A DNA stretch of 35,865 nt from Candidatus Woesearchaeota archaeon (GCA_037442865.1 JBBIPM010000002.1:1-35865), one strand, 5' to 3'. Shown: positions 22,973 to 35,632, counted from the first letter of the stretch. The notes: generated by a model not told the origin, from the sequence alone. Numbers and translations are program-made.

Positions 22973-23003
22973 GGGCGCCTCTGCTGATACTTGAGGGTTC
23001 GGT

Positions 23004-25931
23004 GTGACGATAAGAAAACAGAGGAAAAACCGGTCTGAGCCTGAAACCGAAGAGCGGGCGAAACAGGGCAAGGGGCCTGATCAGGGGTTGTTTGAGAAAG
23101 CCTCGCGTTTCTTCAGGCAGAATACTCGGATCTTGCTGTTTGGGCTCGTATTTCTGGCCATATTGATACCGGTGTTTCTCTCAATCCAGTACCGCAGTTT
23201 CGTCTATTCTTTGCCTGTGGCCGATGGCTGGGCGCAGAACACTATTAATCAAAACATCCGTTCTCAAGTGACCGCCAGCATACGGAACGATTTCCCTAAC
23301 CTGCCGGTTGCCAACCTGGAAAAGATGGTGGATGAGCAAGTAGATCGGTTCGTGGCCGATAACAAAGAAATTATAGAACAACAAGAGAAGCAATTGGCCG
23401 CTTATTTCCGTTCAAGGCTGCGGGAACCGGACGGTCATTCCTACTTGCCTGACTTGGACCCTTATCATTATGCGAAGAGGATTGATCTTACGCTCGCTAA
23501 TGGTTTTCCGGGTCATGAAAGAAGGGAGGGGCTGTATTGGAATAAACAGGCAGTAGCGCCACTAGGAATATTATCGGGACAAGATATGTTCACCTGGCTC
23601 AATGTACAGTTTTACAAGGTGGCCCGTATTTTCTTCGAGCTAGAGCCTCGGCACGTCCTGTTCTGGTTCAACCTCGTCTTTGCCTCCTTGAGCACAGTCC
23701 TTGCATTTCTCATAACGCGGCACAAAGGGTTGTTCGCCTCGTTCATAGCGGCTTTCCTGGTGGCGGTCCACCCTGGAAGCATCAGCAGAACCTCTGCAGG
23801 TGTTGGCGATACGGAGATATTCGCCCTCTTCTTCCCGTTGTTGGCGGCTTGGTTCTTGGTGGAGGCCTTAGAGACTGAGGAAGGCGATTGGAAACGGCTG
23901 GTCTTGATGCTCATCTTCTCAGGTCTCTCTTTCGGTCTCTTGGCACTTGCATGGGAATGGTGGTTCTTTTTCGTCGTCTTCATGGTCGCGCTGCTCTCGT
24001 TCGTAGTCTTCAGGATCGTGAGCCATTTCGTCAGGGGTGGAACGTTCACAGGGCTTTTTTCAAGCACGAAGATGAGGTGGGTGGCCGCGATTCCTGTCGG
24101 CATTTTCCTCAGCACCGGGTTCTTCGTATCCTTGTTCAGGGGTTTTGACGCGTTCGCGAGCGTCTTCCAAGCGATTATCGGACGAGTACAGTTAAAAGTG
24201 GCCATACAAGCGGGCGGCATCTGGCCGAACGTCATGACCACCGTCGCCGAGCTTAACGTGCCTAGCATAAGCGAGATAATCAACAATGCTGGTGGCAAGC
24301 TTCTTTTCGTACTGGCGGTCCTAGGCCTCGGCTTCGCAATGGTGCCGAAAGATCGGTTGAGGGTCAATGATTGGATTCTGCTCGGCTCTAGTCTACTGGC
24401 CGGCATCATCTTAGTATCGCATTTCGCCGCTGATTTCTCGATATTGAACTTCCTGATTATACTAGGTTTGCCGGTCGTTCTGGGTTGTTTTCTGCTTCTC
24501 AAAGAAGGCGATAAAGATGTTGACTTGGCTTACGCTCTGTTCCTGGCGGCTTGGCTGGGAGTGAGCATCTTCTCGATGACGAGAGGCGTCAGGTTCATCA
24601 GCCTACTTCTGCCTCCTTTCATACTGGCGGTCGCCTTAGGGCTCAACGGCACATACGTGCACCTAAAGCGGCTGTTTAGCGAGCACTTACCGACAGTGAT
24701 CGTTGTTCCTGTCCTCCTGATTTTGTTGATGGTGCCGCTCTACCCCGTGGCCGCGCAAGGCCGCGCGGTCGGTTTCCAGGCGACGCCGCACATGAGCGAT
24801 GCGTGGTGGGACTCCCTGACGCTCATCAAAGAGCAATCCGCTCCTGACGCGATCATCACCTCCTGGTGGGATTTCGGCCACTGGTTCCGGTACGTCGCCG
24901 ATCGTGGCGTCACGTTCGACGGCGCGTCGCAACGTGGTCAGCTCGCGCATTTCATCGGTCGTTCGTTGCAGACGAGCGACGAGAAGGAGACGCTCGCTAT
25001 CCTCCGCATGGTGGATTGCGGCTCCGATCGAGGCGGGGAGGAGCTCGAGTCGTTCCTCCCTTCGCAGGACCAGTACGAGGCGATCCTGCTCATGAAGCGG
25101 CTCATCCTCCTGACGCGCGCCGACGCTGAGAAGCTCCTCCTCGCGAACGGCCTCACCGATGAGCAAGCAGCCATCGTCCTGAACTACACCCATTGCGCTC
25201 CGCCTGAGGCGTATTTCATCACCTCCGGCGACATGGTGGGTAAAGCGGGCGTCTGGGGTCATTTCGGCAGTTGGAACTTCACGCGGGCGGACGCATACGC
25301 TAATTTCCATCGTCTGCCGCAGGCGACGGCTGTCGCGGGGATGAGTGCGAAGTACGGTCTCTCCGAGGATGATGCGTCTGTGCTCTATTATGATATGCTG
25401 CGATTGCCGACCGAGCCGCAGGTCAACTCCTGGATCAGCCCCTGGCCGGGGTATGCCACTGGCGTCGTCGGGTGCAACGATGAGAACGGGACGCGGCTCC
25501 TCTGCGGTTTCAACTTGCAGCTCAATTCCCAGGCTGCCGGTCGCTCGGTCTTGGAGGGGCTCGTCGTCAACATCTCCGATCCCGGCGCCTCGTTCTTTGT
25601 TGTCACGACGTATGATGCGCAGGGTCGTCGCGTCCAGTCGACGACCGAGGTGCGTCCGGAGCGGCTCCTCCTTATCCGGAACGGCACTTTGGGCGAGGTC
25701 CGGTTCCCTGACGGCGGTTTCGGTATGGCGGTCGTCGTCGACCTGGATGGGAAACGCGCGATCATGGCTGATCCGCTCCTCGCCGGCAGCCTCTTCACCC
25801 GGCTTTTCTTCTTCGACGGCGCCGGCACGGTCGCGTTCGAGAAGTTCAGCGACCAGACGACGTTCACCGGGAGCAGGATCATCGTCTGGAAGGTGGATTG
25901 GTCCAAGCTCGAGGAGCTGGGCTTGGCGTAG
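23004..25931 (+). CDS. aglB: Archaeal oligosaccharyltransferase AglB (STT3 family)
   Basis: 975 aa. It has a polytopic N-terminal domain of ~13 TM helices containing LDPYHY and GDTE acidic-loop motifs. The diagnostic WWDFGH (WWDxG) motif lies at 24864-24881, at the start of a soluble C-terminal domain. Confidence 0.92.
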   Translation: MTIRKQRKNRSEPETEERAKQGKGPDQGLFEKASRFFRQNTRILLFGLVFLAILIPVFLSIQYRSFVYSLPVADGWAQNTINQNIRSQVTASIRNDFPNLPVANLEKMVDEQVDRFVADNKEIIEQQEKQLAAYFRSRLREPDGHSYLPDLDPYHYAKRIDLTLANGFPGHERREGLYWNKQAVAPLGILSGQDMFTWLNVQFYKVARIFFELEPRHVLFWFNLVFASLSTVLAFLITRHKGLFASFIAAFLVAVHPGSISRTSAGVGDTEIFALFFPLLAAWFLVEALETEEGDWKRLVLMLIFSGLSFGLLALAWEWWFFFVVFMVALLSFVVFRIVSHFVRGGTFTGLFSSTKMRWVAAIPVGIFLSTGFFVSLFRGFDAFASVFQAIIGRVQLKVAIQAGGIWPNVMTTVAELNVPSISEIINNAGGKLLFVLAVLGLGFAMVPKDRLRVNDWILLGSSLLAGIILVSHFAADFSILNFLIILGLPVVLGCFLLLKEGDKDVDLAYALFLAAWLGVSIFSMTRGVRFISLLLPPFILAVALGLNGTYVHLKRLFSEHLPTVIVVPVLLILLMVPLYPVAAQGRAVGFQATPHMSDAWWDSLTLIKEQSAPDAIITSWWDFGHWFRYVADRGVTFDGASQRGQLAHFIGRSLQTSDEKETLAILRMVDCGSDRGGEELESFLPSQDQYEAILLMKRLILLTRADAEKLLLANGLTDEQAAIVLNYTHCAPPEAYFITSGDMVGKAGVWGHFGSWNFTRADAYANFHRLPQATAVAGMSAKYGLSEDDASVLYYDMLRLPTEPQVNSWISPWPGYATGVVGCNDENGTRLLCGFNLQLNSQAAGRSVLEGLVVNISDPGASFFVVTTYDAQGRRVQSTTEVRPERLLLIRNGTLGEVRFPDGGFGMAVVVDLDGKRAIMADPLLAGSLFTRLFFFDGAGTVAFEKFSDQTTFTGSRIIVWKVDWSKLEELGLA

Positions 25932-26975: not shown

Positions 26976-27213
26976 GCTTCGGCACGTCGTGGTCGGCGTT
27001 AAACCTCTTGGTCGACGGCGATCCTCTCTCCTTCGTCGTTCTCCACATCTTACTATGGAGCTACTTTTTGGCACTGTTGCCGCGGCGAGAGCTCGGCTCA
27101 GGTCATGGCAGGACGCGACCGAGTCATACGCAATCCTCCGGGGCATCGATGGCCCCGCCAAGGCGGCAAAAGTGCCGGTAGTGACGAGAAGCGCTATTAC
27201 GCTCTTCGCGATG

Positions 27214-27229
27214 AAAAAATATTAATATT
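27214..27229 (+). promoter_or_regulatory. TATA box for the SET-domain gene
   Basis: AAAAAATATTAATATT is centred ~28 nt upstream of the in-frame GTG at 27249. Confidence 0.45.
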
Positions 27230-27248
27230 GGCTTCTTGGTGTGAGGAC

Positions 27249-27767
27249 GTGCCTGATTTCCTCATCTCCTCTTCGCCGTTCGGTCTCGGCGTCGTCGCCG
27301 GCAGACGTTTCCGTCGCGGCGAACCGCTCTTCCCCTTCACCGGGGAGCGTCTGAAGAAAGAGGAGCTTCCCGTGATCTTCGCTCCCGAGGATGATCGGTA
27401 TGTCCGGGTCGGGCAGGATTTTTTCTTCGACCCTTCCGGTGGCTTTGACGATTGCTTTGACGATTTCGTGAACCATTCCTGCGATCCGAATTGCGGTCTC
27501 GTCTTCGACGGCGATCGCGTCCAGCTGGTGGCGATCCGGATGATTGCGCCGGGAGAGGAGCTGTTCTGGGATTATTCGACGACCATGGACGAGGATGGCT
27601 GGGAGTTGGCGTGCCGTTGCGGCTCTCCGCTCTGTCGCGGCAGGGTGAAGGATTTCAAGCATCTCCCCGTTCCGCTTCGTCTCCGGTACGCGAAGCTCGG
27701 CATCATCCCGCCGTACCTTCTCCGGTACGTCCCTGCTGTCATGCTCGTTTCGAATCGTGTCGCCTGA
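27249..27767 (+). CDS. SET-domain protein-lysine methyltransferase
   Basis: NHSCDPNC lies at 27471-27494 and ELFWDYS follows. A post-SET Cys cluster, CRCGSPLC, lies at 27612-27635. The start is uncertain. GTG 27249 fits the TATA spacing. The track ATG 27105 adds ~48 aa in which roughly half the codons are A/T-ending. TTG 27228 is also in frame. Confidence 0.8.
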   Translation: MPDFLISSSPFGLGVVAGRRFRRGEPLFPFTGERLKKEELPVIFAPEDDRYVRVGQDFFFDPSGGFDDCFDDFVNHSCDPNCGLVFDGDRVQLVAIRMIAPGEELFWDYSTTMDEDGWELACRCGSPLCRGRVKDFKHLPVPLRLRYAKLGIIPPYLLRYVPAVMLVSNRVA

Positions 27768-28662
27768 ACCAGGCGATCGTCTCCCGCAGCCCGTGCTCGA
27801 GCGTCGTCGTGGCGGTGAAGCCGAGCTCCTCGTTCGCTTTCGTCACGTCGGCGAGGCTCGTCTGCGGGTCGCCGGGACGGGCCGCGTGATGGATGATCCT
27901 GCTCGTGCTTCCGGTGAGCCGGATGATCGTCCGGGCCAGTTCGTTGATCGTGACGCTCCTTCCGGTGGCGATGTTGATCGTCCCGCTCCCGGTGGCGAGG
28001 CCACGTTCGATCGCGGCGCAGACATCCGCGACGAAGATGAAATCCCTGGTCTGGGTGCCATCACCGTAGATCGTGAGCGGCTCGTTCTTCAGCGCCCGGC
28101 TGATGAACGCCGGGATGACCGCCGCGTACTGGCTCCCGGGATCCTGTCCTGGGCCGTAGACGTTGAAGAACCGGAGGCAGAGGCAGGGCAGTCCGTCGCG
28201 TGTGTATCGTGCTGCGTGCGCTTCCATGGCGAGTTTCGTGGCGGCATAGGGGCTGCCGGGCTTTGGCCTCTCCGTCTCTTTCGTCGGCGTCCGGGGCGTG
28301 AACCCGTAGACGGCTGCGCTGCTGGCGAGCACCGCTTTCTTCACCTTCGCTTCCCGGGCCGCTTCGAGGACGTTGAGGCTGCCCTGGACGTTGACGCGTT
28401 CAGCTTCGGCAGGGTTCTTGATCGTTTCCAGCACCGAGATCATGGCGGCGAGGTGGACCGCCGCGTCTTTCCCTTCCATCGCCTTCTTGATGAGCGTCGG
28501 GTCGGTGACGTTTCCTGCGATGACGCTCGCTCCTTCCGGGATCATCTCCTGTTTTCCGCTGCTCAGGTCGTCGATGATGGTGATGGCGTGGCCTGCTGCG
28601 AGGAGGCGTTTCGCGAGATTGCTGCCGATGAAGCCCGCTCCTCCGGTGATCAGGATCCGCAT
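27739..28662 (-). CDS. Extended-SDR UDP-sugar 4-epimerase-like enzyme (GalE/WbpP type)
   Basis: MRILITGGAGFIGSNL carries GxxGxxG. YAATK (YxxxK) and FNVYGPGQ are present. It is 307 aa. A TATA box lies ~27 nt upstream. Its 3' end overlaps the SET gene 3' end by 29 nt. Confidence 0.88.
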   Translation of the reverse strand: MRILITGGAGFIGSNLAKRLLAAGHAITIIDDLSSGKQEMIPEGASVIAGNVTDPTLIKKAMEGKDAAVHLAAMISVLETIKNPAEAERVNVQGSLNVLEAAREAKVKKAVLASSAAVYGFTPRTPTKETERPKPGSPYAATKLAMEAHAARYTRDGLPCLCLRFFNVYGPGQDPGSQYAAVIPAFISRALKNEPLTIYGDGTQTRDFIFVADVCAAIERGLATGSGTINIATGRSVTINELARTIIRLTGSTSRIIHHAARPGDPQTSLADVTKANEELGFTATTTLEHGLRETIAWFRRHDSKRA

Positions 28663-28682
28663 GGCGGTGGTGACGTTTCACC

Positions 28683-28694
28683 CATTATTAAACT
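28683..28694 (-). promoter_or_regulatory. TATA box for the 27739..28662 gene (leaderless spacing)
   Basis: CATTATTAAACT (plus-strand reading) is centred ~27 nt upstream of the minus-strand ATG at 28662. Confidence 0.45.
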
Positions 28695-28856
28695 CTCCTC
28701 GTTTTCCTTCGCGCGCATATTTATTTACTATATAGTTATTATTTATTCCTCTTTATCGTTCCCGGTATCATGTATCAAGGATGAATATCAGGAACGAATA
28801 CGGACGCCGGGACGGTACTCTATTATACTACTATAAAGTGATTACTTTTCAGAAAA

Positions 28857-28890: not shown

Positions 28891-30093
28891 ATGGCCGCTC
28901 CGCGCTCCACTTCCCCGCATCCCTGTCGCGTCACCGCGCCGCGCCAACGCGCCCCCAGCACAGCCTCCTCTTCCTCCCGCGCCATCCCCTCCTTCCTGCT
29001 CTGCACCCTCTCCTTCCTCCTCGCTTTTTCCCTCCCCTCCACGCTTGCCGTCATCTACCACGACTACTACGGCCCCTACGGCGGCGACCCCTGGCTCACC
29101 TGGGACGAGGATTACCGGCTCAACAACAAGAGCCACGCCACGCCGCCCTTCGCCCCCCGGCCGAGCTTCGGCGGCTGCTACATCGCCCAAGGGAGCGGCG
29201 TGCTCCTCGACGACCTCGACTGCGACAAGGTCCCTGATGTGTCTGACAACTGCCGCGGCGTCCCGAACACCGACCAGCGCGACCAGAACAAGAACGGGCT
29301 GGGCGACGCCTGCGACCTCGTCGTGGACGCGATCAGGATCGACCCCGGCGTCGTCCTCGAGGACCGGCCGTTCATCGTCACCGCTGCGCTGACGAACTAC
29401 CGTGCGCTGCCGATCAGCAACATCGAGCTCACTATCCAGGTGCCGGAGCTGGGGCTGGACCAGAAAGCGTATGTCGACCGGCTTGAACCCGGGCAGCAGG
29501 GACGCTACGAATTCTTCCTCCGCGTCCCCGGCTGCACCGTCGCGAAGGAGTACGACGTCGTCCTCTTCATCGCCTTCCCGCAGAGCCCCGGCGTGAAGGA
29601 GTTCTTCTACATCCCGACGCGGATGGCGGTCCAGAGCAACGGGCTCTGCCAGGAGGAGCCCACGCTCCGGGGGAAGAGCATCATCACCATCCTCGACGTC
29701 CAGGACATCGACCCGGTGCTGGGCGGCTCCTACCCCTTCACCATTGTGAATGGCGAGCCCGAGAGTCAGGCGTATGTCCTCACCGTCCAGGGCACTGAGG
29801 AGTGGGGGAGCTACCTCATCGAGCCCCGCTCCCTGATCGTCGTTCCTGCCGGCGAGACGCGCGAAGGGCGCCTCACGCTCTTCGCGAAGAAAGGCGTGAC
29901 GGGCGAGCACGGCTTCATCCTGACGTTGCGGAGCAAAGCGGATGCGCAGCAGCTCGTCCTCTCCGCCCGCGTCAAGGACGAGCTCCCGGGACGGAGCCTC
30001 GCTTCGTGGCTCCAGTTCGGCATCTTCATCCTCTGCGCCATCATCCTCGTCGCGGCCTTCGCGCTCCTCCATCTGAAACGCGGAAAACGTTAG
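28891..30093 (+). CDS. Membrane-anchored surface protein: thrombospondin type-3-like calcium-binding repeat plus CARDB-like beta-sandwich domains
   Basis: It has a long signal or anchor region (...FLLCTLSFLLAFSLPSTLA). The TSP3 signature DDLDCDKVPDVSDNCRGVPNTDQRDQNKNGLGDACD lies at 29209-29316. About 250 aa of beta-rich sequence follows, then a C-terminal TM helix (WLQFGIFILCAIILVAAFALL) and a basic stop-transfer (HLKRGKR). Confidence 0.8.
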   Translation: MAAPRSTSPHPCRVTAPRQRAPSTASSSSRAIPSFLLCTLSFLLAFSLPSTLAVIYHDYYGPYGGDPWLTWDEDYRLNNKSHATPPFAPRPSFGGCYIAQGSGVLLDDLDCDKVPDVSDNCRGVPNTDQRDQNKNGLGDACDLVVDAIRIDPGVVLEDRPFIVTAALTNYRALPISNIELTIQVPELGLDQKAYVDRLEPGQQGRYEFFLRVPGCTVAKEYDVVLFIAFPQSPGVKEFFYIPTRMAVQSNGLCQEEPTLRGKSIITILDVQDIDPVLGGSYPFTIVNGEPESQAYVLTVQGTEEWGSYLIEPRSLIVVPAGETREGRLTLFAKKGVTGEHGFILTLRSKADAQQLVLSARVKDELPGRSLASWLQFGIFILCAIILVAAFALLHLKRGKR

Positions 30094-30432: not shown

Positions 30433-31572
30433 ATGGGAGATAGATTGTCCATCACGCTCGTCGCGCTCGTCGCGTCCTTGCTCATCGCACTGCCCGCCGC
30501 GCTTGCGGACCAGGTCCAGAACGGCTTCCCAATCGACGGATGCGCCCTCGAGACGCCCCACGGCCTCGTCAACGACCGGGACTGCGACGGCGTCGACGAC
30601 TTCCGCGACAACTGCAAATACAGGCCGAACAGCGACCAGCGCGACGCCAACCGGAACGGGATCGGCGACGCTTGCGACCTGCTCGTCACCCAGATACTCC
30701 TCCAGCCCGGGACCGAGGTGCAGCAAGGAGCGTTCTTCACCGTCAGGGTCCAGCTGATCAACAACAAGGCCTACGAGATCACCGACCTCCAGGCACGCAT
30801 CAGGAACAACGCGCTCGACATCGACGTCAGCACCTTCGTCGAGCGGATGAAGCCAGGCGAGCAGCGGACGATCGACTTCATCGCGAAAGCCCCGGGCTGC
30901 GCCCCGCCGCGGAACTACGAGCTGGCGTTCACCACTGACCACAAGGAAGGAGGAAAGGCCTACACCCAGACGCGCTACCAGCAGATCACGCTCCTCAAGA
31001 AGGACGGGGCCTGCACCCCGGTCGCCGGGACGCTGCAGAACACCCTCGTCGACACCTTCACCGGCCAAGAGGTCGAGCCGGGCGGCACCGTCATCTACCC
31101 GATCACGATCACCAACCTGAACAGCCAGGCGAAGACCTACACGGTCAGTGTCGAGCCGATCAACCATCTCGGCACCTACCGGCTCGATCCGGAGAGCACC
31201 GTGACGGTCGACGCAGGCAGGAGCGCCACACTCTTCCTCTTCCTCCAGACGGAGCGGTTCGCCCCGCCCGGACGGAACCAGATCCAGCTCGTCATCGAGA
31301 CCGGGAACGAGCGCGAGACGACGACGCTCAACCTCCGCGTGGTCAACGGGAGGGGGGTCCCGCTCGCCAGGATACTCTTCACCGCGCTCCAGGTGGCGCT
31401 CATACTCCTCGTGCTGGCGCTTATTATCGGCGCCGGCATCGTCGCGTACAGGAAACTGAACGCGGAATACGAGGGGGCGACAGGCGAGAAGCCGCGACGC
31501 TCACGTGGCGAGAAGCACGGAAAGCCGGCCGTCGAGGATGTCGCTGATGATGAGTTCCAGAGCTACTACTGA
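30433..31572 (+). CDS. Paralogous membrane-anchored surface protein: TSP3-like repeat plus CARDB-like domains and an acidic cytoplasmic tail
   Basis: The signal peptide is LVALVASLLIALPAALA. The TSP3 signature NDRDCDGVDDFRDNCKYRPNSDQRDANRNGIGDACD lies at 30571-30678. Beta-sandwich-like segments follow, then a TM helix (ILFTALQVALILLVLALIIGAGIVA) and a ~50-aa charged tail. Confidence 0.85.
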   Translation: MGDRLSITLVALVASLLIALPAALADQVQNGFPIDGCALETPHGLVNDRDCDGVDDFRDNCKYRPNSDQRDANRNGIGDACDLLVTQILLQPGTEVQQGAFFTVRVQLINNKAYEITDLQARIRNNALDIDVSTFVERMKPGEQRTIDFIAKAPGCAPPRNYELAFTTDHKEGGKAYTQTRYQQITLLKKDGACTPVAGTLQNTLVDTFTGQEVEPGGTVIYPITITNLNSQAKTYTVSVEPINHLGTYRLDPESTVTVDAGRSATLFLFLQTERFAPPGRNQIQLVIETGNERETTTLNLRVVNGRGVPLARILFTALQVALILLVLALIIGAGIVAYRKLNAEYEGATGEKPRRSRGEKHGKPAVEDVADDEFQSYY

Positions 31573-31582
31573 GGTGGACCTG

Positions 31583-34500
31583 ATGAAGCAGCCACGCGCA
31601 TCCCTGACCTACCCGCTCCTCCTGTTCGCGCTCCTGTTGACGATCCTCGTCATGCCGGCGCAGGCCGCGATGATCGTGAACACCTACACGAACGACTTCT
31701 CCGTGGAGAGCCCCTACGCCTCCGAGCCGAAGGCGTGCGCCTGCGAGAGCCGCGCCGACCGGGTGACAGTGACCAACACCGGCGCTTTCCTCTCCTCCTA
31801 CACAGTCAGCGTCCACTCAGAGCAGCCCTGGTACCAGCTCCAAGGAGGTGGGTTCACCCTCGCGCCGGGCGAGAGCCGCGACGTCCTCGTCTACGCAGAG
31901 CCGCCTTGCGACGCCACCGGCACATCGCGCTACAGCATCAGGGTCGCGTCGAGCTACGGCCGCGAACGGGTCCTGAGCAGGACCCTCGATGTGAAGAAGT
32001 GCCAGAACGCGTTCCTCACCGTCCAGGGCGGCGTCGAGGAGTCGAACCTCTGCCAGCCCCTCGAGTACATGGTGACGGTCCGGAACGTCGCGGAGTTCGC
32101 CGATACCTTCACCCTCGACTTCGGCGCATTCAACGCGTACGCTGACCTCAAAGAGCGGAGCTTCTCCCTCGTCCCGGACGAGCAGCGGAAACTCCTCGTC
32201 ACGATCACGCCGCCCTGCAGCCTCTACGGCGAGATTAGCATCCCGTTCATCGTCACTAGCGAGAAGAACAAGGTGACTGAGCAGAAGGAGATGCGCCTCG
32301 TCATCGAGAACCAGTTTGACCACGACATATCGATCGCGACCCAGACGGAGATCTGCAGCCGGATCGCGTCCCGATACACGTTCAACATCACCAACCTCAT
32401 CGACGTGCCGAATACGTATGATGTGATCGTCACCGGCCCGGGCTTCCTCGACTACGACCCGAAGCAGCTCGAGCTGAAGGGCCACGAATCGAAGCAGGTC
32501 ACCCTGACGCTGAACCCGAAGAAGGGGCAGGAAGGGACGCACGAGGTGAAGGTGAAGGTCCGGAGCAGGCTCGGCGAGATCACCAAGACGCGCGTCCTCG
32601 ACGTGGACGTCTTCGACTGCTTCGCCTACGAATTCGGCTTCGTCGAGCAGGCACGCGACAAGGACGGGTCGTACGCCGAGGTGGCCTGCTGCGGCGAGAC
32701 GAGCTACACCCTTAACCTCCGGAACGCGGGGCAGACGGAAGAGACCTACAACCTCCTCGTCGACGGCCCGAGCTGGTTCCAGCCCGAGGAACGGACGATC
32801 AGGCTGAAGCCGAGCGAGAACCGGAACGTCCGGTTCGCGGCGCGCCTCCCCTGCACCGACGAGCGGTACGAGCTGCCCGTCACCGTCGTCCTCACCAACC
32901 ACCCGGAGATCGCGGACACCATCATCTTCCGGGTCGAGAGCCAGACGCTCCAGACGTGCCATGCCGTCGAGGCGAGCGTGACGAGCGTCACCATCGCCGA
33001 GGACGACGCCATCGTCCCCTTCCTCGTCAAGAGCACCGGCATCCAGGGCGGGACGTACCGCGTCGCGGTAGACGGAGAGCTCTACGCCGCGGTCTCCGAG
33101 GAGCGGATCACCCTCGCCCCGGGCGAGGAGAAGGCGCTCCACCTCATCACGAAAGGGAACCTGACCGACTACTTCGACGGCAAGTACCTCAGCATGCTCA
33201 CCCTGACGCATGAGCCGCTCGGCCTCGAGTATGCGCAGCCATTCTGGACGCGGTTCGCGCACAACGGGTTGCTCGTCACGGCGTGGCGCGCCCTTGCCGG
33301 CTACGACTACGCGAGCGTCGCGCTCTGCCTCTGGGCGATGCTCCTCCTCGCGCTGCTCGTCATCGCGACGGTCATTATCATCATCCTGACGCTGCTCGGA
33401 GTCCTGCGGCGGCCGAAGATCGACGCGACGCTCCTCTGGGCGCTCCGCGTCGCCCTCCTTGTCGTCGTGGCGCTCCTCATCATCCTCCTCGTCGTCCTCC
33501 CCCTCCCGGCGAAAGACGGGCTCTATGAGGATCGTCTCGAGGACGACGAGTCGGGAATGCTCCTCCAATGGTACGAGAACGAGCGGTTCACCCTGGACCT
33601 GGCGCAGTACTTCGCCGATCCGGACGACGACCGTCTCGAGTTCTTCGCGACGCAGCCGGCGCACGTCCGCGTCGTCATCACCGGAAGCACCGCGACGCTG
33701 ATCCCTGACGCGAACTGGGGGGGCGAGGAGTCCCTCATCTTCACCGCCTCGGACCAGCGCGGCGGCTACACGGACAGCCCGCTCTTCACGCTCAGTGTCC
33801 TCCGCAGGACCGAGTTGACGTTTGGCCAGTGGCTGGCGCGGTACTGCCGCCACCTCAACCTGGCGCTCCTCCTCGTTCTGGCGCTCCTCTGGCTCCTCTG
33901 GCTCTTTCTCGCCAAGCAGGAGGTGAAGCCGCCACGGGAGCAGAAAAAAGGGGGCGTTCACACCGTCGTCGCGAAGGAAGGAGCCGTCCGCAAGCTCGGC
34001 GTCGGCGCTTCTCACCCTCCGTCACCCGTCGATCCGCAGAGCGCGCGGAGCTTGGACCAGGCGTTCGTCGCCTGCGGCCAGGAGCACGAGATGCGCTCCG
34101 TCCTGAAGGCGCACGGGAAGCGCGCCACGAAAGGGAACATCGCCACCGTCCAGGCGGCGTGCCGCGCCTTCAAAGCCGACACGCGATGGACGCCGAACAA
34201 TCGGGAGACGTTCTACCGTTATCTCTCCGCGAACAGGACTCTCGCGAAGCTCGAGAGCAAGGCCGAGAGCAAGGAGAGGCCGCTCGTCGACGAACTGAAC
34301 GCGACCCGTCCGCGTCGTGGACGCCCGCCGCGCCGCGGATCAGCCGCATCAGCCCTGGCGTTCGTCCCTACGCGGAGCGCCCGTCGAGTGGATGAGCGCG
34401 TCGAGGTGCCGCAGCAGTACGTCGAGACGCCGTCCCCGTTCACCCAAGTGAACGTCGCGGTGGGAGCAAATCTCGCCACGGAACGGAAGGAGTTTGTCCT

Positions 34501-34651
34501 GATTGGCGCCAAGAACGGGAACAAGGTCCACGACCCGGAGTGCATGATCGCCCACCGGATCCCGCGGAAGAACCGCGTCACCTTCACGAGCAAGGAGGCA
34601 GCGCAGGCGGGCTACGGCCCGTGCAAGGTCTGCCAAGCGTTCGGTGCGTGA
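31583..34651 (+). CDS. Giant polytopic surface protein: five or more beta-sandwich modules, three TM helices, second ectodomain, and a basic cytoplasmic tail with an AT-hook-like motif and an Ada-type zinc module
   Basis: ATG 31583 is preceded by GAGGTGG (31571-31577), and the track start at 31505 is an over-extension. The signal peptide is LLLFALLLTILVMPAQA. Repeated ~100-aa modules have recurring Cys positions (KACAC...PPCDATG; NLCQP...PPCSLYG; VACCG...LPCTDER). TM helices lie at about 33318-33405, 33427-33510 and 33853-33915. RPRRGRPPRRG lies at 34307-34339. KVHDPECMIAHRIPRKNRVTFTSKEAAQAGYGPCKVCQ lies at 34523-34636. Confidence 0.85.
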   Translation: MKQPRASLTYPLLLFALLLTILVMPAQAAMIVNTYTNDFSVESPYASEPKACACESRADRVTVTNTGAFLSSYTVSVHSEQPWYQLQGGGFTLAPGESRDVLVYAEPPCDATGTSRYSIRVASSYGRERVLSRTLDVKKCQNAFLTVQGGVEESNLCQPLEYMVTVRNVAEFADTFTLDFGAFNAYADLKERSFSLVPDEQRKLLVTITPPCSLYGEISIPFIVTSEKNKVTEQKEMRLVIENQFDHDISIATQTEICSRIASRYTFNITNLIDVPNTYDVIVTGPGFLDYDPKQLELKGHESKQVTLTLNPKKGQEGTHEVKVKVRSRLGEITKTRVLDVDVFDCFAYEFGFVEQARDKDGSYAEVACCGETSYTLNLRNAGQTEETYNLLVDGPSWFQPEERTIRLKPSENRNVRFAARLPCTDERYELPVTVVLTNHPEIADTIIFRVESQTLQTCHAVEASVTSVTIAEDDAIVPFLVKSTGIQGGTYRVAVDGELYAAVSEERITLAPGEEKALHLITKGNLTDYFDGKYLSMLTLTHEPLGLEYAQPFWTRFAHNGLLVTAWRALAGYDYASVALCLWAMLLLALLVIATVIIIILTLLGVLRRPKIDATLLWALRVALLVVVALLIILLVVLPLPAKDGLYEDRLEDDESGMLLQWYENERFTLDLAQYFADPDDDRLEFFATQPAHVRVVITGSTATLIPDANWGGEESLIFTASDQRGGYTDSPLFTLSVLRRTELTFGQWLARYCRHLNLALLLVLALLWLLWLFLAKQEVKPPREQKKGGVHTVVAKEGAVRKLGVGASHPPSPVDPQSARSLDQAFVACGQEHEMRSVLKAHGKRATKGNIATVQAACRAFKADTRWTPNNRETFYRYLSANRTLAKLESKAESKERPLVDELNATRPRRGRPPRRGSAASALAFVPTRSARRVDERVEVPQQYVETPSPFTQVNVAVGANLATERKEFVLIGAKNGNKVHDPECMIAHRIPRKNRVTFTSKEAAQAGYGPCKVCQAFGA

Positions 34652-34655
34652 GCGG

Positions 34656-35177
34656 ATGGGAACTCCTCCGAACCCTCGTGATCTCGAGCTCTTTTTCTCG
34701 TCTCTCGCTCCCTATTCGCCCGTCGCCTCTTTGCTCGCCGAGAAGTGCCGAGAACCCGGTGTCGGCGAGCGGTCGGCCAGCTCCCCTCCCGTCACGGGCT
34801 CCCCGTCCTTCGCGCATCACTCGAACATCTCGTTCGACCCCTTGACCGCTATCGCGAACGGGAACCTTCCGATCGAGTCTTTCCGATCAACCGACCCTTT
34901 CCAACTGCTCGACATCTTCGTCGATCCCGGTACGTATGATCCCTGCTCTCGTCGTTTCCGGCCAGAACCGTTCACCACGGAGAGAGGGGTGAAGGTGCGG
35001 TACGAACCCGACCGAGGCCTCTTCATCCCCACCAATCTCCTCTTTCGCGCCCTTAATCTGCTGGTCGGAGATGCGTATTGCGGAGTCTCTCTCTCGAAGA
35101 ACTTCTTTCTGACCGGGCGCGGCGGGGAGCACCCTTCAGGGAGGCGGATAACCGGCTTTTACGGTTGGTCTCTCTAA
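34656..35177 (+). CDS. Hypothetical protein, possibly translationally coupled to the giant surface-protein gene
   Basis: The ORF overlaps or abuts the upstream stop: GTG 34644 or ATG 34656 against the stop at 34649-34651. Third codon positions are strongly C/G-biased (ctc, ttc, atc, gac, ccc), like confirmed genes. I recognise no domain. Confidence 0.45.
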   Translation: MGTPPNPRDLELFFSSLAPYSPVASLLAEKCREPGVGERSASSPPVTGSPSFAHHSNISFDPLTAIANGNLPIESFRSTDPFQLLDIFVDPGTYDPCSRRFRPEPFTTERGVKVRYEPDRGLFIPTNLLFRALNLLVGDAYCGVSLSKNFFLTGRGGEHPSGRRITGFYGWSL

Positions 35178-35371: not shown

Positions 35372-35632
35372 TCACCGGAAGAACTGGATGAAGAGGAGCC
35401 GGAGCAGGTCGTCCTTGCTCTTGCAGAGCTCGATGTTCCGCGCCAGGAACCGATCCTGCATCACCTCTTTGACCCAGGTGGCGAAATCGTTCCGCCCTTG
35501 TCCGGTGTGGTGCTCCCAGACATGGCGTTCCATGGTCTGGAGCTCGGTGAAGAGGTCCTCGAGCGAAGCGAGAGTCCCTCCCTCGTGGAGGTAGAAGTGC
35601 TTCTCGGTGTCGGTCACTGCATACGTCGCCAT
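35372..35632 (-). CDS. Small conserved-looking hypothetical protein (86 aa)
   Basis: It has balanced amino-acid composition and strong C/G third-position bias. The pattern FYLHEGG.L.SLEDL...L..M....W.HH...GRNDFATWV resembles a small archaeal domain I recall as DUF5752-like, but this is unverified. AGGAG lies ~18 nt upstream, and a TATA-like GTTTATAAATC lies at 35680-35690. Confidence 0.6.
   Translation of the reverse strand: MATYAVTDTEKHFYLHEGGTLASLEDLFTELQTMERHVWEHHTGQGRNDFATWVKEVMQDRFLARNIELCKSKDDLLRLLFIQFFR

Follow-up and report, generated by a model that had tools for sequence, protein, structure and literature searches.

Why would a giant archaeal surface protein carry, behind its last membrane helix, a long basic tail that ends in a module resembling part of Escherichia coli Ada? 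The question is raised by a gene at 31583-34651 (plus strand; 1022 amino acids (aa) plus stop) in a 35,865-nucleotide (nt) stretch of DNA from a Candidatus Woesearchaeota archaeon (GCA_037442865.1 JBBIPM010000002.1:1-35865), hereafter the window. The gene appears in the list of open reading frames (ORFs) and has colinear homologues. DPANN archaea are tiny, mostly uncultivated and thought to depend on contact with a host, and their envelope proteins are almost entirely uncharacterised. A preliminary description of the gene, made from the sequence alone, had seen in it an adhesin-like membrane protein with a DNA-binding-style cytoplasmic tail. Our analysis leads us to favour, tentatively and at somewhat short of even odds, a related reading: the product would be an envelope glycoprotein, encoded in a conserved AglB locus, with an accessory tail that tethers a cytoplasmic polyanion, most probably nucleic acid.

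The enclosing plus-strand open frame runs from 31505 to 34651, and ATG 31583 is the sensible start. A Shine-Dalgarno-like GAGGTGG, read from the sequence at 31571-31577 on the plus strand, lies 5 nt 5' of this ATG and overlaps the TGA of the preceding surface-protein gene. We found 15 homologues with 46-59% identity (the database also holds the target itself, P0001), all colinear with it through three transmembrane (TM) helices; together with the window protein they form the set of 16 aligned sequences used below. A sister clade of 11 further genomic relatives, at 31-34% identity, is colinear across the TM region too. Because homologues of both clades are colinear across 33300-33900, we regard this as one gene and reject a frameshift or a fusion of two genes, which the preliminary description had kept in mind for this interval. 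Metagenome-assembled genomes are the source of all 16 GTDB-species loci and of the homologues that carry names, and they are labelled mostly as Candidatus Woesearchaeota, Nanoarchaeia or Nanoarchaeota, with a minority carrying other archaeal labels. The family, which counts at least sixteen orthologues besides the sister clade, is a real, conserved cell-surface protein of Woesearchaeota/Nanoarchaeia-type (DPANN) archaea.

A signal peptide (aa 1-28, 31583-31666; all features of the gene lie on the plus strand) was recognised from hydropathy and conservation by its K/R n-region, Leu-rich core and AQA↓A cleavage motif, and the A-x-A motif followed by (L/M)IVN(K/T)YTNDF is kept in homologues. Next come five acidic immunoglobulin (Ig)-like β-sandwich domains (aa 39-559, 31697-33259), supported by AlphaFold2 (AF2), Pfam and Foldseek. 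Over this array of ~530 aa, the predicted local distance difference test (pLDDT) score of the full-length AF2 model is mostly 75-94, Pfam gives an Ig-like FixG_C match with E 4e-16 as well as Cep192/CFAP65-type Ig matches, and most of the 10-12 Cys are invariant among homologues. Foldseek, run with the full-length model, returned generic Ig arrays only (HYDIN/CFAP-type, the S-layer protein SbsB, alpha-2-macroglobulin, cadherin and PrgB). The array is followed by a membrane hairpin seen in hydropathy and AF2 (TM1 at aa 581-604, a basic loop at aa 605-614 and TM2 at aa 615-638; 33323-33496) and by a second ectodomain, an acidic, Cys-free, Big_9/cadherin-like Ig domain (aa 660-740, 33560-33802) identified by AF2 β-strands and Pfam (Big_9, E 1.6e-6; Cadherin_5, E 9e-5). 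TM3, a hydropathy peak and AF2 helix, spans aa 755-776 (33845-33910), and the remaining 244 aa (aa 779-1022, net charge +20) make up the tail. Every part listed in the preliminary description is thereby recovered within a few codons of the positions given there, including the five Ig-like modules with recurring Cys, the two adjacent TM helices, the Ig-like second ectodomain and the third TM helix.

A weak Pfam HAP2-GCS1 match in the Ig-like stretch aa 24-103 (E 0.004; 16 bits vs a cut-off of 27) prompted us to consider a fusexin (HAP2/GCS1, Fsx1). Foldseek led us to reject this candidate: no fusexin occurs among the top 50 PDB matches of the full-length model. Features expected of a surface-layer protein, namely a signal peptide, an Ig array, TM anchors and synteny with an AglB locus, are all present. 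However, the window ectodomain holds only 2 N-glycosylation sequons vs 3-9 in homologues, and against the PACE-CTERM S-layer model of NCBIfam the score is 43 bits, with a cut-off of 110. Given the generic Ig-array matches and the conserved AglB/surface-protein locus, we read the core protein as an envelope glycoprotein.

On which side of the membrane does the tail lie? Five independent lines of evidence support the cytoplasmic location first proposed for it. The signal peptide, with its conserved A-x-A, is followed by three strongly hydrophobic helices. Net charge is distributed alike in all 16 proteins, with -19 to -49 in ectodomain 1, -3 to -14 in ectodomain 2, +1 to +7 in the TM1-loop-TM2 segment and +16 to +61 in the tail. 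N-x-S/T sequons cluster in ectodomain 1 (2-9, vs 0-2 in the tail), and structural Cys occur outside only, except for the zinc-site Cys and two Cys of the tail domain that we call module B, present as a pair in three sequences, the window's included. Sister-clade proteins end 11-27 aa past TM3, as in YYNPNKNRGKKG or YYRPKTRPRRRKKKR, and this Lys/Arg stub (type YxYYNPxKNRKK) is a textbook cytoplasmic stop-transfer end. Finally, in other proteins that have no signal peptide, module B stands at the very N-terminus and is followed by one TM helix and OmpA_C (21 of 59 multidomain matches; an example is P0083, 'OmpA family protein [Spirochaetales bacterium]'). Because it there precedes a TM helix and a periplasmic, peptidoglycan-binding OmpA_C domain, module B is, by the logic of MotB and OmpA, a cytoplasmic domain. 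The tail very probably faces the cytoplasm.

Alignment of the 16 tails reveals a cassette with no fixed domain order, composed of one or more hairpin motifs (module A), 0-3 copies of module B, polycationic linkers and 0-1 copy of a terminal module C. The tail is mostly disordered, 125-326 aa long and polycationic in the window's sub-clade. Module A, a membrane-proximal β-hairpin motif (GVHTVVAKEGAVRKLG, aa 791-806, 33953-34000) defined by alignment and AF2, follows the pattern (A/V)VHTVV.K.G.V(R/K)KLG and stands directly after TM3 in 16/16 tails; some homologues have one or two extra, related copies (G..FTYVD..G..RTLGVAE..WPEP). AF2 places strands at aa 794-796 and 802-804, at low confidence (about 60-69). 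One sister-clade orthologue (locus L013, 8398-8994) has, instead of the 11-27-aa stub, a 199-aa tail with six ~33-aa repeats (ITREKGYLYYVDKKG.VSR.KMAR.GKK), an independent expansion from hairpin repeats reminiscent of module A. Pfam scans of module A and of these L013 repeats gave only generic β-hairpin/propeller-blade likeness (DUF5050, choline-binding repeats).

Module B (aa 818-891, 34034-34255) is a ~74-aa domain delimited by AF2 and the homologue alignment, with five helices at pLDDT 93-97 and the motif D..(L/F)V....HE(M/L)..VL..HGKR.T..N...FK....(Y).P.NR..FYRYL. It occurs in 12/16 proteins. Like module A, it had been overlooked in the preliminary description. A word-indexed search for relatives returned nothing, and an exhaustive HMMER search of 1.84 billion representatives (E < 1e-3) was needed to find 119 clusters at 50% identity (P0056-P0173), many of them stand-alone proteins of ~70 aa. 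Fusion partners include OmpA-family proteins, a membrane-anchored SurA/peptidyl-prolyl isomerase, PpiD/SurA-like proteins and AAA/ORC-like NTPases, and module B is also appended to the C-terminus of ribosomal proteins S6 and L21. Several matches, DPANN-like in appearance, repeat the layout of our tail on other anchors: a multi-TM anchor, a KKxxKK linker and module B, with or without module C (P0066, P0076, P0078, P0086, P0087, P0093 and P0102), or a coiled coil, a K-rich linker and module B (P0075 from Nanoarchaeota, P0092 from Woesearchaeota). In P0023, a coiled coil is joined to a relative of module C without an export signal. The clearest case is P0102, a 319-aa metagenomic protein with an unrelated multi-TM region followed by a K-rich linker, module B, another K-rich linker and an ADA_N-like end (FHLPSC...HRPCRVCNP). 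Because P0102 carries both, modules B and C travel together on different anchors. The combination of an anchor or coiled coil with a K-rich linker and B and/or C is a reusable cassette in DPANN-type proteomes.

Known families say little about module B. No significant PDB relative was found by sequence profile or Foldseek, and Pfam gave no match for the window's copy at E <= 1. DUF2853 (PF11015) matches 4/44 B sequences at E < 1e-3, and the module B profile in turn matches the DUF2853 protein P0160 inside its DUF2853 region; the link to DUF2853, and to DUF3606, is remote. The literature on DUF2853 was uninformative. Helices 2-3 look HeH/SAP-like by visual impression only, and we make no claim of it. 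No further B or C modules were found in the window or in loci L001-L004 outside the target gene.

Between modules B and C lies a disordered polycationic linker (aa 892-954, 34256-34444, from AF2 pLDDT). Scores are < 50 at aa 898-901 and 921-950, on into the N-terminal extension of module C as far as aa 967. Linkers of the homologues are Lys/Ala/Val-rich with histone-H1-like KKxxKK repeats; the window's, in this high-GC stretch, is Arg/Pro-rich. It was here that an AT-hook had been proposed, on the strength of RPRRGRPPRRG at 34307-34339. Like an AT-hook of the HMGA type, this RGRP, the only one in the protein, has Arg and Pro on its flanks and lies in a disordered stretch. Unlike one that has been retained, it is found in 0/15 homologues, whose linkers are Lys-rich; Pfam AT_hook has no match in the window protein at E <= 1, and ~1% of shuffled tails contain RGRP by chance. 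On these data we reject an AT-hook, and RGRP is most simply a by-product of composition, the high-GC version of a generic polycationic linker.

Module C (aa 955-1022, 34445-34648) is a predicted zinc module of the ADA_N-like type, identified by Pfam, PDB profile, Foldseek and AF2. Its folded core spans aa 972-1018, and wherever it occurs (10/16 proteins) it forms the last ~68 aa. We aligned nine copies (alignment A2) for profile and Pfam scans. All nine match PF02805 (Ada_Zn_binding), with a best E of 3e-6. The window's copy, as an isolated 68-mer, reaches 23.0 bits (E 8e-5) vs a gathering cut-off of 23, so that the predicted relationship is marginal for this copy and consistent across the family. 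The alignment covers just positions 29-63 of a Pfam profile with 65 positions, leaving the Ada-type N-terminal helix unmatched; NCBIfam gave weak Ada matches and no specific model. A PDB search with the profile of the nine copies returned Ada only (E 0.007; four listed chains, all Ada entries). AF2 predicts a β-β-α-β-α fold with a terminal helix (pLDDT 79-87), for which Foldseek ranked the Ada-DNA nuclear magnetic resonance structure 1zgw first of 350,542 PDB chains (probability 0.87; 48 columns, root-mean-square deviation 2.0 Å, 29% identity). The predicted ligands His983, Cys987, Cys1014 and Cys1017 align with Ada Cys38, Cys42, Cys69 and Cys72. His at the Cys38 position is an invariant column in the nine aligned modules, and most outside relatives that keep the zinc ligands have His there as well, with Tyr in ligand-loss variants. 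As judged from these residues, a His-Cys3 site is plausible for zinc, though the canonical site is Cys4. The Ada-type zinc module that had been pointed out at 34523-34636 (VHDPEC...PCKVCQ) is borne out by profile search and tail structure prediction alike, marginally for the window copy. By sequence and predicted fold, we assign module C to the recently recognised ADA_N-like class.

ADA_N-like domains (an ECOD X-group; Pei et al. 2025) are mostly C-terminal modules on diverse proteins, including Mycobacterium tuberculosis ArfC, which has a TM helix, Clostridioides difficile Cwp27 and ComEC, which have signal peptides, and Cutibacterium acnes RplD, i.e. ribosomal protein L4; their role is stated to be unknown (PMC12353581). 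Among relatives of module C outside the family, some have the zinc ligands replaced (YY...C...PAAxC), a few (P0021, P0023) are without an export signal, and one (P0046) is named 'nuclease' by its source.

What might such a tail do? We propose that the cleaved signal peptide would export the acidic, disulfide-containing five-Ig array, the TM hairpin would bring the chain back outside for the Big_9 domain, and TM3 would then put the C-terminus in the cytoplasm. Judging from genomic context, this core and two smaller TSP3/Ig/TM proteins encoded just upstream most likely belong to a surface layer or an adhesin-like complex. In the window's sub-clade, a short Lys/Arg stop-transfer stub would have been lengthened into a polycationic tail of interchangeable small modules. 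This tail may serve as a non-sequence-specific tether to a polyanion, with chromosomal DNA or RNA/ribosomes as candidate ligands; electrostatic affinity would come from the Lys/Arg linkers, and the zinc module, by analogy with N-Ada, might grip backbone phosphates. We infer nucleic acid as the likeliest ligand because the linkers are H1-like and polycationic, because N-Ada, the sole member of the module C fold with a known function, grips DNA phosphates, and because B or ADA_N-like modules occur on ribosomal proteins (S6, L21, L4) and ComEC. The relative named 'nuclease' points the same way, as does reuse of the cassette on unrelated Woesearchaeota/Nanoarchaeota-type proteins, P0102 among them. 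A bolder version, in which the giant surface protein is coupled by its own tail to the chromosome or ribosomes as a lineage-specific envelope-to-nucleoid or envelope-to-translation tether, seems unlikely.

Several observations weigh against a nucleic-acid tether, or against individual steps toward it. Module B is missing from 4/16 orthologues and module C from 6/16, and this variation in module content implies that the function of the tail is dispensable or redundant; because the sister clade lacks the tail, that function is also accessory. Some bacterial copies of module B are acidic, and so is the copy in P0099. In longer fragments, the window's module C scores 21.6 and 16.2 bits against PF02805, and the Foldseek E of 0.68 for 1zgw is not significant alone. 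Of 24 outside relatives of module C that we inspected, 20 are bacterial proteins in which an N-terminal signal peptide or TM anchor immediately precedes the module; because its relatives are mostly exported mini-proteins, module C is not diagnostic of a cytoplasmic, DNA-binding role. Topology was drawn from the five lines given above rather than from a dedicated predictor, and the description of the core protein as, most likely, an envelope glycoprotein of surface-layer or adhesin-like type is based on architecture and genomic context. Lastly, a scaffold for proteins or lipids would account for just as many of the facts.

In that last case, the linkers would lie on anionic archaeal lipids, or modules A, B and C would bind envelope, cytoskeletal or division proteins, with the zinc site purely structural and the surface complex organised from the inside. 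The acidic ...DDEFQSYY end of the TM protein encoded directly upstream could pair with the basic tail, and module B sits at the cytoplasmic end of many unrelated anchors (OmpA-family, PpiD/SurA-like), as an envelope-organising adaptor might. The acidic B copies are easier to accommodate here too, and bacterial ADA_N-like domains are found on cell-wall-associated proteins with CW_binding_2 and LGFP (PMC12353581). Fusions of B and ADA_N-like domains to ribosomal proteins, and of an ADA_N-like domain to ComEC (PMC12353581), point instead to nucleic acid, as do the H1-like KKxxKK linkers, typical of DNA/RNA binders, and we consider a scaffold possible, if on the doubtful side. If one of the helices failed to span the membrane, the tail would be extracellular, and module C might bind extracellular or host DNA or host surface polymers. 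Such a placement would suit the many outside relatives with a signal peptide or TM anchor (20/24), along with the signal peptides of the C. difficile ADA_N-like proteins (PMC12353581). It is made quite improbable by the three clear TM helices after the signal peptide, the positive-inside asymmetry in 16/16 proteins, the KR stub after TM3 in the sister clade, the cytoplasmic position of module B in OmpA fusions, and a tail with 0-2 sequons and with Cys only in modules C and B.

Two further alternatives take the likeness to Ada more literally. In one, raised as an option in the preliminary description, the protein would be a one-component transmembrane sensor or regulator whose ectodomain senses a ligand or host contact and whose tail, still tethered or freed by proteolysis, controls transcription at specific DNA sites. 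The N-domain of E. coli Ada takes part in promoter recognition, the Ada structures 1zgw and 1u8b are matched here, and the tail is basic and cytoplasmic. However, Ada needs a helix-turn-helix (HTH) for specific binding, and searches of the tail with Pfam, NCBIfam, PDB and Foldseek revealed neither an HTH nor any other domain for specific DNA binding. The AT-hook is not conserved, syntenic orthologues carry 0-1 copy of C and 0-3 of B, and the sister clade is almost tail-less. Because no HTH-like domain was found and module content varies among orthologues in identical synteny, a sequence-specific regulator is highly improbable. In the other, the zinc module would act at the membrane as an acceptor of methyl groups from methylphosphotriesters or as some other kind of sensor for alkylated nucleic acid. 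Homology to N-Ada speaks for this, as does retention of Cys1014, the equivalent of Ada Cys69. Cys38 is reportedly the accepted methyl acceptor of N-Ada, a view credited to Lin and colleagues in 2001 and to He and colleagues in 2005. A recent account names Cys69 as the methyl-accepting residue of Ada instead, and ADA_N-like domains have been speculated to sense alkylated DNA (PMC12353581). Against such chemistry, the Cys38 position holds His in 9/9 aligned family modules, a His-Cys3 site is expected, from zinc-thiolate chemistry, to be less nucleophilic than Cys4, and no methyltransferase or HTH partner domain is present. With His in place of Cys38, and though the Cys69 equivalent is retained, Ada-type methyl capture is exceedingly improbable.

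Returning to the tethered envelope glycoprotein, comparison with known systems helps to delimit what is new. Like other ADA_N-like domains, module C is a small β-sheet module with a C-terminal helix and ligand pairs x-x3-C and C-x2-C, placed at the extreme C-terminus of a larger, often membrane-anchored protein. It differs from the examples described in its archaeal host, in its position on the predicted cytoplasmic side of a three-TM giant (the C. difficile proteins are secreted), in having His rather than Cys as first ligand, and in its combination with module B and polycationic linkers. With E. coli N-Ada (N-Ada10; 1adn, 1eyf, 1u8b, 1zgw) it shares the fold and three of four zinc ligands. 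The motif N..(V)xF.S..eA..aGY.PCK.C is common to the family and most outside relatives, and Ada itself has GFRPCKRC. Unlike Ada, module C has His for Cys38, stands at the C-terminus rather than the N-terminus, and is accompanied by neither an AraC-type HTH nor an O6-methylguanine methyltransferase domain; the pairing of Cys38 with an adjacent AraC-type HTH that marks a functional Ada is absent, no HTH being detected by Pfam, NCBIfam or Foldseek. Given these differences, module C would at most resemble the phosphate-gripping part of Ada, not the repair enzyme or regulator.

The ectodomain invites comparison with two-component archaeal S-layers that include a membrane-anchoring subunit, such as SlaA/SlaB of Sulfolobus (PMC10903991), and with bacterial Ig-array S-layer proteins of the SbsB type, which likewise combine a signal peptide, β-sandwich arrays and a TM anchor. 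Association with AglB N-glycosylation and the Foldseek likeness to SbsB extend the parallel. Neither SlaA nor SlaB showed sequence homology to our protein, which also differs from these systems in its three TM helices, in the extra Ig domain that these enclose and in its long, modular cytoplasmic tail. The preliminary description knew of no described archaeal architecture of this kind. The layout is indeed unusual, but that statement has to be narrowed: C-terminal ADA_N-like domains on membrane and secreted proteins have already been described (PMC12353581). We found no specific literature on a Woesearchaeal S-layer or on the same architecture. What is new is the archaeal host lineage, the position of module C at the predicted cytoplasmic end of a giant surface protein with three TM helices, the presence beside it of a helical domain that is widespread and essentially unannotated, and the reusability of the cassette in DPANN-type proteomes.

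The family illustrates how membrane anchors acquire cytoplasmic end-pieces from small domains, here the ADA_N-like module and module B, that are widespread yet unstudied. Should the tail indeed bind nucleic acid, it would provide a direct envelope-nucleoid or envelope-ribosome link in archaea and a first functional handle on ADA_N-like domains, and a true tether could place DNA or RNA where these very small, episymbiotic cells touch their hosts. If it does not, an envelope protein family specific to this lineage has still been usefully annotated.

The genomic setting is itself conserved. The locus opens with asparagine synthase, GT4 glycosyltransferases, AglB/STT3, GT2 and an NAD-epimerase, and closes with TSP3/Ig-like/TM proteins of ~400 and ~379 aa, the target gene, a small ORF of low conservation and, on the other strand, a gene for an 86-aa protein; the same order is found in L001-L005. 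AglB/STT3, the oligosaccharyltransferase of this N-glycosylation locus, is encoded at 23004-25931 on the plus strand (Pfam STT3, E 2e-33). The two upstream surface proteins, of 400 aa (28891-30093, plus strand, syntenic in both clades) and 379 aa (30433-31572, plus strand, immediately upstream of the target), were both recognised by Pfam; each combines TSP3 repeats with an Ig-like domain and has a TM helix at the C-terminus. They are paralogues, 28-30% identical to each other. Orthologues of the 379-aa protein occupy the same position with 55-65% identity, and its acidic cytoplasmic end is conserved (...DDEFQSYY, ...DDDFESYY, ...EDEFQSYY); such a peptide could dock onto the giant protein's basic tail. 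In the clade at 31-34% identity, the arrangement of surface protein, giant and 86-aa gene persists. The two TSP3/Ig proteins and the three-TM giant, beside AglB, make a conserved candidate for a core surface complex.

Downstream of the target, the 86-aa gene (35372-35632, minus strand) is found in every locus examined, its product being 57-79% identical among near-clade loci and about 30-35% identical in those of the sister clade; its only match is a weak one to DUF5752. The ORF at 34656-35177 (plus strand) begins 5 nt past the stop of the giant gene, and homologous loci have a gene of 121-153 aa at this place. Its product has faint pairwise similarity (E 0.002) to that of L003 and none to that of L001, and it is possibly a fast-evolving, co-transcribed small protein. 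Upstream, a 359-aa ORF at 27757-28836 (plus strand) has no Pfam match and is a shadow ORF; the real gene, at 27739-28662 on the minus strand, encodes an NAD-dependent epimerase/dehydratase (Pfam Epimerase, E 1e-60) that matches the minus-strand epimerase in L001 and L003. Neither Rfam nor tRNA scans of the window gave a match. Inside the glycosylation/surface-protein locus lies a gene for a SET-domain protein (27105-27767, plus strand; Pfam SET, E 3e-17), for which tblastn gave no match in 20 loci. Base composition varies along the window, with a GC (guanine plus cytosine) fraction of 0.39-0.48 at 1-2000 and 0.51 at 23001-24000, where AglB starts, vs about 0.60-0.66 elsewhere.

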